This document shows, in pieces, positions 1 through 7,011 of a stretch of DNA of 11,507 nucleotides. Under the pieces are notes generated by a model. The model did no database searches. It was not told where the DNA came from and saw only the letters and a program-made list of their open reading frames with translations. Source of the DNA: a virus (lineage: Duplodnaviria; Heunggongvirae; Uroviricota; Caudoviricetes); IMG/VR virus record IMGVR_UViG_2740892442_000015; one strand, 5' to 3'. The first letter of the stretch is position 1. Each line of letters starts with the position of its first letter. The position numbers and the translations under genes were made by a program.

Positions 1-468
1 TTTTGAATATGGAAATAAATCAATTATATTGCCAATTATTCCATCTTTTTGACAAAAGAGAATTATTATTAGATAAATGAAAGTAAACGTAATAAATGAG
101 ATGAAAACTTTCATAAATGCCATAAAGTTATATTTTAACGTGGGCATCTGTGTTTTTTTATGTTGTATTGACATCATCTGAAGAAACATCTCGGGTTTGG
201 ATAGTGTTGCAAATATTGTGAAACCAGCAATGAGAAAACCTAAGGTTGTCACTGCAAAGTTAAAACCAATCAAAGCCCAGTTTCTAATGTCAGATACTAA
301 ATGAGACATATCCTTCTCAATAAAAAAAGAGTTTGTTAATAAAAAAATAGATGCTGTGAGCAAAATGCAAATATGGAATGTACTAATAGTAATCCGTTTG
401 CAGAGCAAGTAAACATCCCAAAGGTTTTTCTCTTTGGTTATTTCTTTAGCATCTATTTTATTTATCAT
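1..468 (-). CDS. Partial ORF (first 156 codons; C-terminus lies beyond window start) encoding a predicted multi-pass membrane protein; last gene of the repressor-linked operon
   Basis: My own translation of the minus strand from ATG 468-466 to position 1 is open for 156 codons with no stop (MINKIDAKEITKEKNLWDVYLLCKRITISTFHICILLTASIFLLTNSFFIEKDMSHLVSDIRNWALIGFNFAVTTLGFLIAGFTIFATLSKPEMFLQMMSIQHKKTQMPTLKYNFMAFMKVFISFITFTFIYLIIILFCQKDGIIGNIIDLFPYSK...). The start overlaps the TGA stop of the upstream gene (ATGA at 465-468). It has several long hydrophobic stretches. It is absent from the supplied ORF track, probably because it has no stop inside the window. In this very AT-rich DNA an open frame of this length is unlikely by chance. 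Confidence 0.6.
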   Translation of the reverse strand, partial: MINKIDAKEITKEKNLWDVYLLCKRITISTFHICILLTASIFLLTNSFFIEKDMSHLVSDIRNWALIGFNFAVTTLGFLIAGFTIFATLSKPEMFLQMMSIQHKKTQMPTLKYNFMAFMKVFISFITFTFIYLIIILFCQKDGIIGNIIDLFPYSK

Positions 469-1493
469 CGACCAAACCTTTCATATATATTGCTAATAAT
501 TCTAATCGTCTTTTGTGAAAGAGAACGGGGTAGAGATATCTTACCTTCTTCTACAAGATTTTCATACCGCTCATAACTTTCATTTGCAGCTACTACCGTA
601 TCCTTTGATAATTCATTCATCTCACTTAACAAAACAAAGTCATCATTGCTACCTTTGATTATATCACCATTGTCATCATATCCTTTAATATTTATTCCTG
701 AATTAGCCAATCTGGTTGCTGATGTGAGTTGTTCTAAAACAGCACCATGATTCAAGCCTGAATCGGTGTTTGAAAAGCGAATAGATGTAGAAATACTTCC
801 CATTTCGTCTCCGGCACTTTCAAGTGACTCCCAAAATTCGTCGTTATCAATTTCTTCTTGATTTGTAGGGAGAAGTTTTACTGAGACATTTTGGATTTTA
901 TTAAAATTATCAATAAATTGCTCTAGGCTTTGTTTGTCAGTTAACGGCGTTATTCTTAGCTTCGGGCGTTTGATTTCGTTCCGTAAGCTTTTTTTAGTGA
1001 CTCGAGGTAAGTCAGGGTTTTCTTTGCGTTCTTCTTGTGCGGTTTCGTATAAATGAGATATGTATTTTTCATATTCTATGTTTAAGAAACACTGACTTGT
1101 TGACTGAAAGTTTTGAATTGTGGGAGCACCACTAACTTCCTTGCAAAGAATTAATCTGTGAGTGTTTAATATTAGAAGAAAGAAAGAGCTCGGGGCTGTT
1201 TCAAGCTCTTTATGATCTTCAACCAGATCAGCACCATCAAATACTTGTTCTCTGGTTAATAATGTATTCTTAATAATCCGACCTTTAATTCCGAGTACTG
1301 GGGGTGTTGCTTCTTCGTCAAGTATGACGCATTCAGTATCAATGAAAAAGAACTCTGATTTGTCAGATATTCTGCGGATGTTTGCCATCTCCAAAAAAGA
1401 GGGGAAAACAATTTCATCATAATAGTCTAGCAAAACATCATCACCAAAACGGAGAGTATAATTTCCAAATTCGAGTTTTTTTATAAAATCCAT
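465..1493 (-). CDS. Hypothetical 342-aa protein, acidic and Ser/Asn-rich, no motif I recognise (no P-loop, no tyrosine-recombinase signature); middle gene of the repressor-linked operon
   Basis: ORF from the track. A GAGG Shine-Dalgarno sits about 8 nt upstream of the ATG at 1493. It lies 15 nt downstream of the repressor gene on the same strand, and its stop overlaps the start of the next ORF. Spot counts give roughly 30 percent GC, far below the tail genes. Confidence 0.8.
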   Translation of the reverse strand: MDFIKKLEFGNYTLRFGDDVLLDYYDEIVFPSFLEMANIRRISDKSEFFFIDTECVILDEEATPPVLGIKGRIIKNTLLTREQVFDGADLVEDHKELETAPSSFFLLILNTHRLILCKEVSGAPTIQNFQSTSQCFLNIEYEKYISHLYETAQEERKENPDLPRVTKKSLRNEIKRPKLRITPLTDKQSLEQFIDNFNKIQNVSVKLLPTNQEEIDNDEFWESLESAGDEMGSISTSIRFSNTDSGLNHGAVLEQLTSATRLANSGINIKGYDDNGDIIKGSNDDFVLLSEMNELSKDTVVAANESYERYENLVEEGKISLPRSLSQKTIRIISNIYERFGR

Positions 1494-1508
1494 TACTATG
1501 CCTCAAGA

Positions 1509-2387
1509 TTAAATAGTACGGTACTGTGAGAAAATTTTGGCAACTAATTTTATATCTTCTTTTTCACAATCAAATGTTAAATCATCGTCTGTTACTCGAA
1601 GATTGCCTCCAGGTAATAGAAAAATTTGTTTTAACTTGAAATTATTTTGGTATTGAACAATCCATCTTCCGTCTTCAACATTAGCTTTATTCATGTGTGC
1701 AATATTTATGCAATGTTCGTCTTCAATTGCGAGTAAATCATTAAAATGAGGAAGCAGGGACTTATCTATCAATAAATGACCAGCATCGAAAATTTGATTG
1801 TCAATAAGTTTTACTTTAGGAATTTCTAAAGCTTCACTTTCTTCGCTTCCAAGTTTTTGCCCGCGCCCAGTTGCTAACCATAAAAGAGAAGTTCTTGTTT
1901 CCAACGAGCATCTTATGATCCAGTCAGCTGGGAATGTGTCTCGCAAGTATCTATTCGCCATTGTGCTTTTAGACACATTCAAATGGTCGGCAAGTTCTTG
2001 TCTTGTTTTAAAGCCATACGCTTCCATTAGCCTGTTTATCGCATTACGTCCACCTGAATCCAGATTTGGATGGTTCACAATTGGGTTCTCGTTGGTGGTG
2101 GCTTTGGGAACATATTGAACCAATGATGCTGGTTCCTCTAATTTAGCGGGAACTTCGGTATTCTTAGGAAATGGCACGCCTTTTCCGAATGAGAGCCACT
2201 CTATAGATGCTCCTGTTTCAATTGCACACTGAATTACCCAGTCAGCAGGAAATGCGTCACGCATCCAGCGCGTTCCCATAGTACTTGCAGATACATTGAA
2301 CTGTTCACATAGGGCTTGCCGCGTCTTGAATCCATACGCTTCAAGCATGCGCGTTATGACTGCCTGTCCTCCGTTTTTGAAATTCAT
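1509..2387 (-). CDS. Phage CI-type repressor-like protein with two tandem N-terminal HTH domains (186 CI-like family) and a C-terminal LexA/S24-like domain that appears degenerate
   Basis: Residues about 8-70 (VITRMLEAYGFKTRQALCEQFNVSASTMGTRWMRDAFPADWVIQCAIETGASIEWLSFGKG) and about 115-177 (AINRLMEAYGFKTRQELADHLNVSKSTMANRYLRDTFPADWIIRCSLETRTSLLWLATGRG) are about 60 percent identical to each other and match my memory of the phage CI repressor HTH domain. The C-terminal part (GRWIVQYQNNFKLKQIFLLPGGNLRV) resembles the LexA/CI S24 fold, but I see no G-x-S-M motif. The gene is divergent from an Apl/Cro-like gene. Confidence 0.8.
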   Translation of the reverse strand: MNFKNGGQAVITRMLEAYGFKTRQALCEQFNVSASTMGTRWMRDAFPADWVIQCAIETGASIEWLSFGKGVPFPKNTEVPAKLEEPASLVQYVPKATTNENPIVNHPNLDSGGRNAINRLMEAYGFKTRQELADHLNVSKSTMANRYLRDTFPADWIIRCSLETRTSLLWLATGRGQKLGSEESEALEIPKVKLIDNQIFDAGHLLIDKSLLPHFNDLLAIEDEHCINIAHMNKANVEDGRWIVQYQNNFKLKQIFLLPGGNLRVTDDDLTFDCEKEDIKLVAKIFSQYRTI

Positions 2388-2512
2388 CTAGTACGCCTTT
2401 GAGTAATATTGAGTTGATACTTCTCAAATGAAGAATTAATGTGTGCGAAAGTGAACTTGACGGTGTTAATCACCAGTTACCACACATCATGTTAATCGAG
2501 GAATCTTGCATC
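2388..2512. promoter_or_regulatory. Divergent intergenic switch region between the repressor gene and the Apl/Cox-like gene; likely carries both promoters and operators
   Basis: 125-nt gap between divergent start codons. TTGACG at 2457-2462 is a -35-like hexamer. The 8-mer TGTTAATC occurs twice (2464-2471 and 2490-2497). GGTGTTAATCACC at 2462-2474 has inverted 4-bp arms. A further TTAAT lies in the gaattaatgtg stretch just upstream. Confidence 0.45.
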
Positions 2513-2734
2513 ATGACTCCACATATTTCAATCACCTTAGCTGTTCCATCTGTTTCTATTGAGAAATACAGCGAACTGACTGGCTTATCTATCGACACCA
2601 TCAATGACATGCTGGCTGATGGACGTCTTATTCGCCATCGTCTCCGTAAGGATAAAAAGCGAGAAAAGGTGATGATCAATATCGCAGCAATGACTGTTGA
2701 TGCACTCGCTGAATGCAATTTGAGCATTAACTAG
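2513..2734 (+). CDS. Small HTH DNA-binding protein, Apl/Cox/Cro-like (73 aa)
   Basis: First gene transcribed away from the repressor. ATG at 2513 gives MTPHISITLAVPSVSIEKYSELTGLSIDTINDMLADGRL..., which contains an HTH-like segment. The track ORF starts at 2441 from an upstream codon, so the exact start is uncertain (another in-frame ATG lies at 2489). Confidence 0.55.
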   Translation: MTPHISITLAVPSVSIEKYSELTGLSIDTINDMLADGRLIRHRLRKDKKREKVMINIAAMTVDALAECNLSIN

Positions 2735-2748
2735 TTCCATTTTGGGTT

Positions 2749-3276
2749 ATGTCAGAGATGTCGAATATGTTTGATTACCAAGTTTCCAAACATCCACATT
2801 TTGATGAAGCCTGTCGTGCATTCGCATTGCGCCACAACCTGGTGCAACTGGCAGAACGTGCTGGCATGAATGTGCAGATTCTGCGGAACAAGCTGAACCC
2901 AGCTCAACCTCATTTATTAACCGCACCAGAAATCTGGCTGCTTACCGATCTGACTGAAGATTCAACGCTGGTAGATGGTTTTCTGGCACAGATTCATTGT
3001 CTGCCATGTGTACCGATTAATGAGGTGGCAAAAGAGAAACTGCCACATTACGTCATGAGTGCAACCGCAGAGATCGGGCGTGTTGCTGCAGGTGCGGTAT
3101 CTGGCGATGTAAAAACCAGTGCCGGTCGTCGTGATGCCATCAGCAGCATTAATTCTGTAACACGACTGATGGCGCTGGCGGCTGTTTCATTGCAGGCCCG
3201 TTTACAGGCTAACCCTGCGATGGCGAGTGCAGTTGATACTGTGACTGGCCTCGGTGCTTCATTCGGTTTGCTGTGA
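2749..3276 (+). CDS. Phage regulatory protein CII-like (phage 186 CII / CP76 family)
   Basis: 175-aa ORF. Segments such as [23 protein letters not shown] and [28 protein letters not shown] match my memory of the 186 CII family. It sits directly after the Apl-like gene, as in phage 186. An alternative start at ATG 2767 (MFDYQ...) is possible. Confidence 0.75.
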
Positions 3277-3283
3277 GGTGCTT

Positions 3284-3580
3284 ATGCTGACGAAAGAACC
3301 ATCATTTGCATCGCTGCTGGTAAAACAAAGCCCGGCAATGCACTACGGTCACGGCTGGATCATGGGAGAGGATGGTAAACGCTGGCATCCATGTCATTCA
3401 CAAGATGAATTGCTGTCTGAATTGACCACGAGAAAATGGAGAAAGTCCAAATGTATGCGGCAGAAAGTGAAGTGGTTTATCAGTTTCGTTACAGAGGGGA
3501 GAGTTATTCAGTACCTGAAGATGATTTGCTCTGTTGCTATCCGTCGTTGTCGGGCGATGGTAGCTACTTTTTCACGCTAA
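3284..3580 (+). CDS. Hypothetical small protein (98 aa from ATG 3284); coding status uncertain
   Basis: ATG at 3284 is preceded by GAGGTG and lies 8 nt after the CII-like stop. The C-terminal half overlaps the next ORF in another frame and has odd composition (rich in W, C, R, K). Confidence 0.3.
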   Translation: MLTKEPSFASLLVKQSPAMHYGHGWIMGEDGKRWHPCHSQDELLSELTTRKWRKSKCMRQKVKWFISFVTEGRVIQYLKMICSVAIRRCRAMVATFSR

Positions 3581-3675
3581 AGGATGGAACCTTTATACGT
3601 GGTGAAAAAGTACAAGAAGTGATGCGTATAAAGACATCACCTCTTGAACGTTATCGGCGAAGTATTTATCGGTAA
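3436..3675 (+). CDS. Hypothetical small protein (79 aa, or 74 aa from ATG 3451)
   Basis: ORF from the track. GGAG at 3437-3440 precedes the ATG at 3451. Amino-acid composition is balanced. It occupies the position of the small fil/dhr-type genes after cII in 186-like phages, but I do not recognise the sequence. Confidence 0.45.
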   Translation: MEKVQMYAAESEVVYQFRYRGESYSVPEDDLLCCYPSLSGDGSYFFTLKDGTFIRGEKVQEVMRIKTSPLERYRRSIYR

Positions 3676-3914
3676 CGATCTATCAGTGTCTGTATCAGAT
3701 GAGTGAATTCTTGTTGTTTAACCGAACCTAAAGGAAGTTTGTTTAATTCTTCGCGGAGGAGCTCAAAAAATGCAGATTGATTTGCTGAGTCAGTTCGAAA
3801 TAAGGAGTGGATCAGACCTGAAACAAGAATTCGTTGAACAGCAACCTCATCGCGAAGACTGGAGATCTCGTTTTCAAGTTGCTCTAAACGCTCTCTTTCA
3901 ACCGGGTTCAACAT
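3666..3914 (-). CDS. Hypothetical 82-aa protein with a coiled-coil-like N-terminus
   Basis: ORF from the track. On the minus strand an AGGA Shine-Dalgarno lies about 7 nt upstream of the ATG at 3914. It is divergent from the 113-aa ORF and its 3' end overlaps the plus-strand ORF ending at 3675 by 10 nt. Confidence 0.5.
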   Translation of the reverse strand: MLNPVERERLEQLENEISSLRDEVAVQRILVSGLIHSLFRTDSANQSAFFELLREELNKLPLGSVKQQEFTHLIQTLIDRYR

Positions 3915-4337: not shown

Positions 4338-4404
4338 CCAACTAATGAAATTAATGGCGTAAACCCGCCGGGCATCCCTTTATCTAAATTCAGGAGAATT
4401 GATT

Positions 4405-4638
4405 ATGCGTAATATTGAAATCCTCACGACTAAAACCGGACCGGATGACGCAGGGCTTAATATTTTACTGACAGAGGCTCGTCTGGAAGAACGTCGGGCA
4501 AGGGCTGAAGCAATGGCAGCTCGCCTTGATAGCCTGGCGTGTCATATCACATCCCGCCAGCTAAACCACGTCAAAGCGGCAGAACTGCTGCGTGTAACTG
4601 CTGAAGCAATCCAGAACGAAGCGCAGGAGATCCACTAA
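4405..4638 (+). CDS. 77-aa ORF with a strong ribosome-binding site, in the same frame as the tape measure ORF and separated from it by one TAA; possibly the N-terminal part of a disrupted tape measure gene
   Basis: AGGAG at 4393-4397 lies 7 nt upstream of ATG 4405 (the track starts at TTG 4399). The stop TAA at 4636-4638 is followed two codons later by the tape measure ORF start in the same frame (4645-4405 = 240, a multiple of 3). The protein is helical and Ala/Arg/Glu-rich. Confidence 0.5.
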   Translation: MRNIEILTTKTGPDDAGLNILLTEARLEERRARAEAMAARLDSLACHITSRQLNHVKAAELLRVTAEAIQNEAQEIH

Positions 4639-4644
4639 TGGCTG

Positions 4645-7011
4645 ATGCAATGGATCTCGTACACCCGCAATATTGAACAGCTCGGTGATGCGCTGAACTA
4701 TCTGGATGATAACGCCATGTCGAAAGGGGCAGACATCATTGATGTGATGCAACGTCTGGGCGGTGTGGCTGACCGTCTGGATTATCGTAAAGCGGCGGCG
4801 CTGGGTTCCACCTTCCTGACACTGGGCGCTGCGCCAGAGGTTGCAGCCAGTGCAGCAAACGCGATGGTGCGTGAATTGTCCATTGCCACCATGCAAAGCA
4901 AGAGTTTCTTTGAAGGGATGAATCTGCTGAAACTCAATCCTGAAGTGATTGAAAAGCAGATGACGAAGGATGCGATGGGAACTATCCAGCGTGTGCTGGA
5001 GAAGGTGAACGCACTGCCGCAGGACAAGCGTCTGTCTGCCATGACCATGTTGTTTGGTAAAGAGTTTGGCGATGACGCGGCGAAACTGGCAAACAACCTG
5101 CCGGAACTACAGCGCCAGCTAAAACTGACAGCGGGCAATGATGCGCTCGGTTCCATGCAGAAAGAATCCGACATCAACAAGGACTCACTTTCTGCTCAGT
5201 GGTTGCTGGTTAAAACCGGAGCGCAGAATACCTTCAGCAGCCTGGGCGAAACGCTGCGCCAGCCGCTGATGGATATTCTGTACACGGTGAAAAGCGTTAC
5301 GGGAGCGTTGCGTCGCTGGGTGGAAGCTAACCCGGAACTGACGGGCACACTGATGAAAGTAGCCGCTATTGTGGCTGCGGTTACCGTAGGCCTCGGCACC
5401 TTGGCTGTGGCGCTGGCTGCAGTGCTGGGGCCGCTGGCAGTCATCCGTCTGGGATTCTCTGTGCTGGGCATCAGAACGTTACCTTCCGTTACGGCAGCAG
5501 TAACACGAACCAGCAGCGCGTTGTCCTGGCTGGCTGGCGCACCACTGGCACTGCTGCGACACGGGCTTGCTTCATCGGGTAACGCAGCGGGTTTACTTAC
5601 TGCGCCGTTGTCGTCTTTGCGCCGTACGGCATCACTGACGGGAAATGTCCTGAAAACTGTTGCAGGTGCGCCGGTTGCACTTTTGCGGTCTGGATTATCC
5701 GGTTTACGTGCGGTTGCTGTGATGTTTATGAATCCTCTGGCGGTACTGCGCGGTGGACTGACCGCTGCAGGTACGGTGCTGCGAGTACTGGCATCTGGTC
5801 CACTGGCGATGCTGCGCGTTGCCCTGTATGCCATATCTGGTCTGTTAGGTGCTCTGCTCAGTCCGATAGGTCTAGTGGTTACTGCACTGGCAGGCGTGGC
5901 GCTGGTTGTCTGGAAATACTGGCAACCCATCACCGCATTTCTCGGTGGCGTGGTGGAGGGATTCAAAGCGGCGGCAGGTCCCGTCAGTGCCGCATTCGAA
6001 CCACTTAAGCCTGTGTTCCAGTGGATTGGCGACAAAGTGCAGGCGCTGTGGGGCTGGTTTACTGACCTGCTGACGCCCGTTAAGTCGACCTCTGCCGAAC
6101 TGCAGAGTGCAGCGGCAATGGGGCGACGATTCGGGGAGGCCCTGGCGGAAGGGCTGAATATGGTCATGCATCCGCTGGACTCCCTGAAATCCGGCGTTTC
6201 CTGGTTGCTGGAGAAACTCGGCATTGTCAGTAAAGAGGCCGCAAAGGCAAAACTACCGGAAAGCGTGACGCGTCAGCAACCTGCGACGGTGAATGCAGAC
6301 GGCAAAGTGATGATGCCATCGGGTGGTTTTCCATCATGGGGATATGGCTTTGCGGGGATGTATGACAGCGGCGGGTATATCCCGCGCGGGCAGTTTGGCA
6401 TCGTCGGTGAAAACGGGCCGGAAATTGTTAACGGCCCGGCAAATGTGACCAGCCGGAGAAATACAGCTGCACTGGCTGCCGTTGTTGCCGGAATGATGGG
6501 CGTTGCTGCCGCGCCAGCAGAGCTTCCACCGTTGCACCCTTTGGCACTTCCCGCGAAAGGTGGAGAAGCAATTGTGAGTCGCGCAGCCACTGTGCCGCTC
6601 GTTCAACGGATTGAGGCACCGACGCAGATCATCATTCAGACGCAGCCAGGACAAAGTGCGCAGGATATTGCGCGGGAGGTGGCACGCCAGCTTGATGAAC
6701 GTGAACGCAGGCTGAAGCAAAAGCCAGGAGTAACTACAGCGATCAGGGGGGATACGACGCATGATGATGGTGCTGGGATTGTACGTGTTTATGCTGCGCA
6801 CCGTTCCGTATCAGGAACTGCAGTATCAACGCAGCTGGCGACATGCGGCAAACAGTCGGGTAAACCGACGTCCGTCCACGCAGTTTCTGGGACCGGAAAA
6901 CGACATGCTGACGCTTTCCGGTGTTCTTATGCCGGAGATAACAGGCGGCAGGCTGTCGTTGCTGGCACTGGAGCAGATGGCAGAACAGGGGAAAGCATGG
7001 CCCCTGATTGA
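4645..7011 (+). CDS. T: Phage tail tape measure protein (P2 gpT-like); probably disrupted at both ends, since the 3' 250 nt of this ORF overlap gpU
   Basis: The N-terminal region (GADIIDVMQRLGGVADRLDYRKAAALGSTFLTLGAAPEVAASAANAMVRELS) matches my memory of the tape measure core motif. A central hydrophobic region carries repeated xPLAxLRxGL motifs. It sits immediately upstream of gpU and gpD. The ATG at 4645 has no Shine-Dalgarno within normal spacing. Translation past about 6760 looks like out-of-frame junk and overlaps the recognisable gpU frame. Confidence 0.85.
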   Translation: MQWISYTRNIEQLGDALNYLDDNAMSKGADIIDVMQRLGGVADRLDYRKAAALGSTFLTLGAAPEVAASAANAMVRELSIATMQSKSFFEGMNLLKLNPEVIEKQMTKDAMGTIQRVLEKVNALPQDKRLSAMTMLFGKEFGDDAAKLANNLPELQRQLKLTAGNDALGSMQKESDINKDSLSAQWLLVKTGAQNTFSSLGETLRQPLMDILYTVKSVTGALRRWVEANPELTGTLMKVAAIVAAVTVGLGTLAVALAAVLGPLAVIRLGFSVLGIRTLPSVTAAVTRTSSALSWLAGAPLALLRHGLASSGNAAGLLTAPLSSLRRTASLTGNVLKTVAGAPVALLRSGLSGLRAVAVMFMNPLAVLRGGLTAAGTVLRVLASGPLAMLRVALYAISGLLGALLSPIGLVVTALAGVALVVWKYWQPITAFLGGVVEGFKAAAGPVSAAFEPLKPVFQWIGDKVQALWGWFTDLLTPVKSTSAELQSAAAMGRRFGEALAEGLNMVMHPLDSLKSGVSWLLEKLGIVSKEAAKAKLPESVTRQQPATVNADGKVMMPSGGFPSWGYGFAGMYDSGGYIPRGQFGIVGENGPEIVNGPANVTSRRNTAALAAVVAGMMGVAAAPAELPPLHPLALPAKGGEAIVSRAATVPLVQRIEAPTQIIIQTQPGQSAQDIAREVARQLDERERRLKQKPGVTTAIRGDTTHDDGAGIVRVYAAHRSVSGTAVSTQLATCGKQSGKPTSVHAVSGTGKRHADAFRCSYAGDNRRQAVVAGTGADGRTGESMAPD
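5520..5880 (+). repeat. Degenerate in-frame tandem repeats inside the tape measure gene
   Basis: Peptide motifs APLALLRHGL, APLSSLRRT, APVALLRSGL, NPLAVLRGGL and GPLAMLRVAL recur at intervals of about 20-25 residues. The corresponding DNA segments (ccactggcactgctgcg, ccgttgtcgtctttgcg, ccggttgcacttttgcg, cctctggcggtactgcg, ccactggcgatgctgcg) repeat at a period of about 65 nt. Confidence 0.5.

Follow-up and report, generated by a model that had tools for sequence, protein, structure and literature searches.

The CI repressor of phage 186 is a model for cooperative control by the wrapping and looping of DNA around a 14-mer wheel of protein. A single DNA-binding head in this repressor reads both the operators at pR, which contain CTCAATTGGGAG, and the FL and FR sites (TTCAC-N5-GTGAA), two unlike sequences. 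By its annotation, FL lies inside cI, in codons 90–96, 269–285 nt from the start of the gene. A model for the wheel and for FL–pR looping has been published (PMC3675496), and induction of the phage depends on the LexA-controlled antirepressor Tum, not on cleavage of CI (PMC7708051). The present analysis concerns the cI gene of IMG/VR record IMGVR_UViG_2740892442_000015 (Caudoviricetes), an 11,507-nt stretch of DNA that is referred to here as the window. This gene (positions 1509–2387, minus strand) encodes an immunity repressor with two DNA-binding heads. It is an ordinary member, sitting in a dead prophage, of a two-headed branch of the 186 CI family that is common but unremarked.

The open reading frame (ORF) at 1509–2387 is intact and codes for a protein of 292 amino acids (aa) identical to WP_001009712.1; its assignment as a 186-type cI draws on the ORF call, Pfam, a PDB match and the RefSeq annotation. 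In PHROGs the repressor belongs to phrog_4 (transcriptional repressors), and NCBIfam held no model naming it. Pfam recognised PF07022 (Phage_CI_repr) in two stretches (whole-protein E = 4e-59) and PF16452 (Phage_CI_C) at residues 188–285 (E = 2e-16). Phage 186 CI (PDB 2FJR) matched residues 115–290 end to end (E = 1e-23), so the protein consists of an extra head and a linker placed ahead of a complete 186-type CI. Head 1 (D1) is a PF07022 helix-turn-helix (HTH) domain spanning residues 5–70 (2178–2375, minus strand, as for the other domains; Pfam and AlphaFold2), with the recognition helix VSASTMGTRWMRD. Head 2 (D2), also PF07022, spans residues 111–176 (1860–2057), has the recognition helix VSKSTMANRYLRD, and sits where 186 CI has its N-terminal domain. 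The C-terminal domain, residues 186–292 (1512–1832), is of the PF16452 oligomerisation type; like D2, it was placed by Pfam, the PDB match and AlphaFold2. The inter-head linker, residues 71–110 (2058–2177), is predicted to be disordered on the basis of model confidence and homologue comparison. Both the identity of the protein as a 186-type CI and its two-headed architecture are near certain.

The linker leaves ∼36–40 residues between the PF07022 domains, and its sequence and length vary among homologues. Its last ∼12 residues (NENPIVNHPNLD) match the N-terminal arm of single-headed CIs of 197/198 aa. A monomer AlphaFold2 model, built on an alignment of 44 two-headed homologues, contained five-helix domains at residues 7–67 (predicted local distance difference test, pLDDT, 81–90) and 113–173, a linker with pLDDT below 50 at residues 75–109, and a beta-rich C-terminal domain at 186–290. 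The predicted template modelling score was 0.40, as expected where domains move independently. The recognition helices of the two heads differ from each other, and that of head 2 is nearly invariant among homologues. An internal start that would yield a short single-headed isoform is not supported: the linker contains no ATG, and its sole GTG (V104) is not conserved in the related two-headed prophage L005.

The two heads are related to each other. BLASTP of residues 1–105 against residues 106–291 gave E = 2e-31 and, over a 68-residue core, the heads share 54% identity in protein and 58% in DNA. The first-pass annotation of this DNA had claimed two tandem CI-type HTH domains in one polypeptide. 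This was borne out, and the profile search it had proposed returned two Phage_CI_repr domains, not one. Its estimate of about 60% identity was somewhat above the measured value. By codon position, DNA identity between the heads was 63%, 78% and 34% at the first, second and third positions, respectively. Since third positions are only 34% identical, the duplication is old. The first-pass annotation had also pointed to a repeat at the DNA level. The 11-mer CCATACGCTTC does occur exactly twice (no shuffle reached two copies), but the second copy lies at 2332–2342 and not, as had been stated, at 2331–2341; the first lies at 2014–2024. The copies are 318 nt apart, an in-frame distance of 106 codons.

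The C-terminal domain is the oligomerisation domain of 186 CI, with a LexA-like fold that lacks the Ser-Lys dyad. A beta domain of the PF16452/2FKD type is present, and the beta fold is LexA-like. An S24/LexA-like C-terminus had been proposed earlier; the fold agrees with this, but no Pfam match to PF00717 (Peptidase_S24) was found up to E = 1, the 186-type PF16452 being found instead. The reported lack of a G-x-S-M motif was correct. In a profile alignment, the E. coli LexA loop that bears Ser119 (SGMSMKDIGI) falls opposite a 10-residue gap, and the proposed alignment of the C-terminus with LexA revealed no Ser-Lys dyad. LexA Lys156 lies opposite K253, in a column that is mostly Arg across the family. 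Among the 44 two-headed homologues, no Ser or Lys column of the C-terminal domain was conserved; the only conserved columns were G197, D208, D239, G240, W242, P259, F272 and C274. The hinge (GRGQKLGSEESEALEIPK) contains no Ala-Gly or Cys-Gly cleavage site, and the sole AG (residues 201–202) lies inside the C-terminal domain, its Ala not being conserved. Absence of the dyad is normal for the 186 family, and the missing G-x-S-M is therefore uninformative on the SOS response. The earlier suggestion that the repressor might not respond to SOS induction does not follow from it, since phage 186 is SOS-inducible through LexA-controlled Tum (PMC7708051). Some sources label such proteins ‘HTH and peptidase S24 domain’ although they lack the catalytic dyad, a tempting mis-annotation that the present alignment corrects.

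The two-headed architecture was found in 46 of the 120 best homologue clusters (formed at 90% identity). The whole family is small, with 218 matches at E of 0.001 or better in a library of 1.84 billion representatives. All nine distant representatives that were inspected carried two PF07022 domains and one PF16452 domain, and were 29–35% identical to the window protein where identity was listed. At the 50% identity level at least nine clusters are two-headed, with members from Pantoea, Hafnia, Citrobacter, Edwardsiella, Enterobacter and Shewanella. Further, two-headed CIs are encoded in the complete Peduoviridae genomes of Klebsiella phage 4LV2017 (ARB15674.1, 313 aa) and Salmonella phage PSP3 (AAN08403.1, 286 aa), the latter (L172, AY135486.1 23218–24078) with two PF07022 domains and one PF16452 domain, and in ∼36 IMG/VR viral contigs, many of them 25–38 kb long. 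Literature searches found no paper in which a two-headed 186-type CI was named, described or studied. A 2011 comparison of P2-like regulatory regions noticed the greater length of PsP3 CI and put it down to ‘a longer C-terminal domain’ (PMC3448106). With the length of the PSP3 protein explained in this way, and with current annotation reading simply ‘phage repressor protein CI’, the two-headed design has escaped notice. One distant hit, P0249 (460 aa), showed five stretches matching the HTH region of the query and no PF07022 at E of 1e-4 or better, and is possibly a repeat protein with several HTH units.

Purifying selection acts on both heads. Relative to L005, which is 91% identical, D1 showed 15 synonymous changes and one non-synonymous change, a ratio of non-synonymous to synonymous rates (dN/dS) of 0.014; the corresponding values were 0.12 for D2 and 0.35 for the linker. 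The closest relatives differ from one part of the protein to the next. D1 shared 84–89% identity with the N-terminal domains of single-headed CIs of 206 aa and D2 72–79% with those of single-headed CIs of 195–199 aa, while the C-terminal domain was 80–88% identical to that of the single-headed P0004/5/7/9 (195–197-aa CIs). In the two-headed P0003, the heads were 99% and 86% identical to those of the window, and the C-terminal domain only 25%. At the DNA level, window positions 3–2089 were 87% identical to L007, a prophage of Klebsiella aerogenes whose CI is single-headed and whose two downstream genes are the same; positions 1865–3400 were 91% identical to L005; and positions 2179–2842 were 71% identical to L002, a prophage with a 206-aa CI. 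Positions 2090–2498, which comprise most of the linker, head 1 and the intergenic region, had no counterpart in L007. Since the closest relatives change along the gene at both levels, a recombinant origin is suggested: the gene looks like the product of recombination between two-headed and single-headed genes, with a crossover inside the conserved DNA coding for head 2. The internal duplication proposed in the first-pass annotation stands as far as two related heads are concerned; it is not recent, however, and the protein is a mosaic assembled by recombination. A derivation of the linker from the 5′ untranslated or operator region of a single-headed ancestor was discarded, since in a local alignment of window positions 2030–2200 with the L007 intergenic region the homology to L007 started only at 2089.

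A neighbour-joining tree of 164 head domains (66 columns, no support values) contained a large clade made up purely of head-1 domains. Head 1 of the window nested instead among the single-headed 206-aa CIs, which suggests that head 1 may have been acquired or replaced more than once. Among 18 two-headed genes of the main clade, mean identity was 88% for head 1, 84% for the 95 bp upstream, 80% for head 2, 38% for the C-terminal domain and 30% for the linker. Similarity of the upstream DNA in these genes correlated with that of head 1 (rho 0.39) and not with that of head 2 (0.12) or the C-terminal domain (−0.03), and similarity of head 2 correlated with that of the C-terminal domain (0.50). From this pattern, two modules appear to exist, one formed by the operator region plus head 1 and the other by head 2 plus the C-terminal domain.

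The intergenic region between cI and the divergent apl-like gene (2388–2512) is expected to contain face-to-face promoters and the promoter-proximal operators. It is homologous to L005 (91%) and L002 (71%), and not to L007. A fixed spot ∼35–40 bp upstream of the cI start is occupied by a 16-bp palindrome that differs by phage group: GTNCCCAWWTGGGNAC in phages with single-headed 197/198-aa CIs, CTTTCC-AAAT-GGAAAG in those with 206-aa CIs, and GTGAAG-N4-CGTCAC in main-clade two-headed phages. In the window, inspection of the sequence and positional homology point to the imperfect palindrome ACTTCTCAAATGAAGAAT (2419–2436), which is unique in the window and lies at the primary-operator position, as a candidate D1 operator. 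It sits between a putative −35 (TTGATA, 2414–2419) and a putative −10 (TAATGT, 2437–2442) of a tentative rightward promoter; a consensus scan of the switch region for promoters and terminators returned nothing useful, and the rightward promoter was not called. The operator of the 206-aa CIs (GGAAAGT-N11-ACTTTCC) was absent from the switch region, with only chance matches elsewhere in the window.

Two further observations concern upstream and neighbouring repeats. An inverted copy of the promoter-proximal motif is present at 2554–2568 (TTCTATTGAGAAATA, 80% complementary to TACTTCTCAAATGAA at 2418–2432), ∼136 bp rightward and inside the apl-like gene; it is conserved in L005, L095 and L097, and may be a further repressor or Apl site, or merely coding sequence (IEKY). 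In L012–L063 (Xenorhabdus and Photorhabdus), the cI–apl intergenic region carries a long inverted repeat ∼60–110 bp upstream of cI. Its arms co-vary between species (for example CTCATCAAAG...CTTTGATGAG and CCCAATAAAG...CTTTTGCGGG), and the CI recognition helix does not vary among these loci, a combination that speaks for a structured element of RNA or DNA in preference to a simple operator.

A second operator-like sequence lies inside cI. In phages with single-headed 197/198-aa CIs, the group palindrome is found at −45, and a half-palindrome at +14, in the arm codons K-Y-P-N-E. Where a two-headed gene has this class of head 2, the intergenic region lacks the palindrome, and exactly one copy is found at +299 to +353, within the homologous codons of the arm directly before head 2. 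In the window this copy is GTTCACAATTGGGTTC (2073–2088, 299–314 nt from the cI start), a candidate D2 site identified by palindrome match and by a position weight matrix (PWM). It is the sole match in the 11.5 kb of the window to the 197/198-aa phage palindrome, with two mismatches (0.12 matches expected at three mismatches or fewer), and its PWM score was 16.3 compared with 6.1 or less elsewhere. The perfect variant of the palindrome is GTCCCCAATTGGGAAC. The sequence CCCWWWWGGG is present at this position in L005, L095 and L097, and the intragenic copy of L095 is near-perfect (PWM score 24.9 of 26), better than the half-site of the single-headed phages. At the homologous position of 17 unique sequences, the codon preceding Pro always ended in C, although it encoded five different amino acids (background 36%), and the Pro codon was CCA in 15 (background 34%). 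This wobble pattern in the arm x-P-[IN]-E was seen in the window (2060–2100), L005, L095, L007, L138 and others. Given the varied amino acids, the wobble C and the CCA bias are not explained by the protein sequence alone, and the pattern indicates a putative DNA-level constraint (CCCAAT) embedded in the coding sequence of the arm. A possible site resembling FR lies between apl and cII (∼2735–2750, GTTCCATTTTGGGTTA); with 12 of 16 matches, the wrong internal spacing and a score below the PWM threshold, it is not claimed.

The explanation that best accommodates these data, and which is held with moderate confidence, is a two-headed 186-type CI that acts on two classes of operator and loops the DNA between them. 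Dimers and oligomers would form through the C-terminal domain, as they do in 186 CI. Pairs of head 1, carried on long tethers, would occupy the promoter-proximal operators in 2388–2512 and so keep the rightward lytic promoter repressed. Head-2 pairs, positioned against the C-terminal domain in the manner of the 186 N-terminal domain, would bind the palindrome class GTNCCCAWWTGGGNAC, which would survive only within the cI coding sequence (2073–2088), at a position like that of FL. A single oligomer could then bridge both sites, looping ∼350 bp, the distance that separates GTTCACAATTGGGTTC from the candidate promoter-proximal operator, as in 186 FL–pR. The two recognition tasks of the single 186 CI head would thus be split between two heads. 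For this two-operator looping mechanism taken separately, the chances are about even. In intact relatives, inactivation would proceed through a Tum-like antirepressor rather than by RecA-stimulated self-cleavage, and in the present remnant there would be nothing left to induce. In 4LV2017, itself a two-headed phage, gene A is followed by a DinI-like ORF.

Several points weigh against this explanation. All operator assignments, in the window and in its relatives, are candidates proposed from sequence patterns. Head 1 is 84–89% identical to the heads of 206-aa CIs, yet the candidate palindrome near the promoter differs from theirs and is imperfect. The intragenic palindrome of the window is degenerate, with GTG in place of GGG and five of eight pairs symmetric, and two-headed genes with another class of head-2 helix, such as that of 4LV2017, lack it. 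The motif is also partly confounded by the conservation of the arm at the protein level (x-P-[IN]-E), and the sequences compared are phylogenetically related. Further, the recognition helix by itself fails to predict the operator, identical helices being accompanied by different intergenic repeats. Prediction from the helix alone was dropped on these grounds, since L021 and L060, as well as the Xenorhabdus loci and L127, share a helix and differ in their repeats. Finally, the correlations between modules are modest and come from non-independent pairs, and the 66-column tree of heads carries no support values.

How the two heads are used can be read in other ways. The first-pass annotation, whose observation was confirmed and whose interpretation is only partly supported, favoured a single-chain pseudo-dimer, with the two heads of one chain filling both halves of one operator. 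Two HTH domains joined by a linker in one chain fit this idea, and bipartite HTH proteins such as POU factors act so (PMC11873960). It is nevertheless improbable here. The linkers, of 36–50 residues, are disordered, poorly conserved and far longer than such an arrangement needs, and a complete 186-type dimerising and oligomerising C-terminal domain has been kept. Although the recognition helices differ, the candidate operators are symmetric palindromes of separate classes and not asymmetric composites, and the heads have had separate evolutionary partners. It could also be that only head 1 binds DNA, head 2 serving as a spacer or platform for the C-terminal wheel or as a docking surface for an antirepressor, and the intragenic palindrome being an ancestral relic. 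The degeneracy of the window palindrome, its absence from some two-headed lineages and the joint inheritance of head 2 and the C-terminal domain, as expected of one structural unit, would all agree with this. It is unlikely, if less so than the pseudo-dimer, in view of the almost invariant recognition helix of head 2 (with a dN/dS of 0.12), of the near-perfect and undecayed intragenic site of L095 (24.9/26) and of the constrained wobble positions.

The converse arrangement, in which head 1 is a regulatory module (an antirepressor decoy or sensor, or an auto-inhibitory domain) and DNA is bound by head 2 alone, as in 186 CI, would take advantage of the flexible tether and of the fact that head 2 plus the C-terminal domain already make a complete 186-type repressor. 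But head 1, including its HTH helices, is the most conserved part of the protein, and it co-varies and is co-inherited with the intergenic operator DNA; moreover, two-headed phages have no intergenic palindrome of the head-2 type, which would leave head 2 alone with no evident promoter-proximal site. This arrangement thus seems about as improbable as the pseudo-dimer. That the protein is an accidental, non-functional fusion might be thought of because the prophage around it has been reduced by deletion to a remnant, its tape-measure gene being truncated. The presence of the same architecture in complete phage genomes and in dozens of diverged clusters from several genera, together with the strong purifying selection on both heads, effectively refutes this idea, to which scarcely any probability can be given.

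The element that carries the gene is a defective 186-like (Peduoviridae) prophage, a deletion remnant. The region is 100% identical to a prophage remnant of E. coli TUM10008 located between rcdA and ybjL, where the gene order is integrase, three genes annotated as hypothetical, cI, apl-like, cII, fil, a hypothetical gene, DUF5347, DUF2732, a 5′-truncated tape-measure gene, U, D and ogr. The replication gene, tum, the head genes and most tail genes are gone. By comparison with the 186 map, cI comes first in the leftward lysogenic operon, diverging from apl-cII-fil and lying upstream of int. The first gene of the rightward (lytic) operon, called as an ORF at 2513–2734 (plus strand), is apl/cox-like and encodes a 73-aa product that is hypothetical in RefSeq; the L002 homologue has a weak match to PF10743 (Phage_Cox), and the window protein itself has no Pfam match. 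It is followed by a 186-type cII at 2749–3276 (plus strand; PF06892, E = 4e-42; Pfam and RefSeq annotation). Among 5,426 complete E. coli genomes, cI and the switch region were present at 98% identity or more in 13, and 18 further genomes had a version 90–95% identical. The protein cluster of the window CI occurs on at least 1,000 contigs.

Downstream of cI, window positions 1–1493 contain an intact ORF of 342 aa (465–1493, minus strand) and the start of a second gene at the window edge. PADLOC, Pfam and NCBIfam returned nothing for the 342-aa gene, and the second gene likewise had no Pfam or PADLOC match. The cargo of the slot between cI and int differs among relatives: L005 has an AAA_15/AAA_21 ATPase together with a DUF4276 protein, phage 4LV2017 a hypothetical protein of 349 aa, and PSP3 gp28. 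It looks like a variable moron or defence slot. An 82-aa ORF (3666–3914, minus strand) lies between fil and the DUF5347 gene, against the direction of the rightward early operon; it has no Pfam match and is hypothetical in RefSeq. At 4399–7011, the DUF2732 gene (4399–4638) directly adjoins the 5′-truncated tape-measure gene (from 4645), and the tape-measure ORF overruns the start of gpU; its C-terminal tail is implausible and points to a frameshift.

The two-headed repressors offer a natural and widespread form of 186 CI in which a dimer would bear four heads and, it seems, serve two classes of operator; the effects of head number, tether length and site class on looping and immunity could be tested in it. 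They also provide an example of immunity evolving through the shuffling of domains and operators. The most interesting possibility is that FL-like looping goes together with a dual specificity for operators, or with dual immunity. Head 1 would be specific for the phage's own lytic promoter and head 2 would retain the specificity of the immunity group of the 197/198-aa CIs, giving two independent DNA specificities. This is rather doubtful, although less so than any of the alternatives considered above. If true, a lysogen, even one carrying a defective remnant, would be immune to two heteroimmune 186-like groups at once; recombination in the conserved HTH-coding DNA could shuffle heads, C-terminal domains and operators into new immunity combinations; and FL-type looping, along with autoregulation, would be a further role of the intragenic site.

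Compared with phage 186 CI (2FJR, 2FKD), the window protein has an additional N-terminal PF07022 domain and a disordered linker of ∼36–40 residues. Its dimer would carry four heads where the 186 dimer carries two, and these heads are of two different kinds, whereas one head in 186 reads the unlike pR and FL/FR sites. The CIs of PSP3 and 4LV2017 share its arrangement of two PF07022 domains and one PF16452 domain but are only 28–42% identical to it. PSP3 CI has a shorter linker and quite different recognition helices, and 4LV2017 CI, a member of the main head-1 clade, carries 18 additional N-terminal residues and is associated with a different promoter-proximal palindrome. Unlike LexA, lambda CI and UmuD, the window protein has no PF00717 domain, lacks the Ser119 loop and has no conserved Ser or Lys, the 186 family being inactivated by an antirepressor. 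Two HTH domains in one chain are also described for POU factors (PMC11873960) and for the XRE-family repressor of the C. difficile phage phiCDKH01 (PMC11172241), although their HTH families are unrelated to PF07022. The heads of POU factors bind adjacent half-sites as a unit, whereas the oligomerising domain and long tether of the window protein suggest independent pairs of heads.

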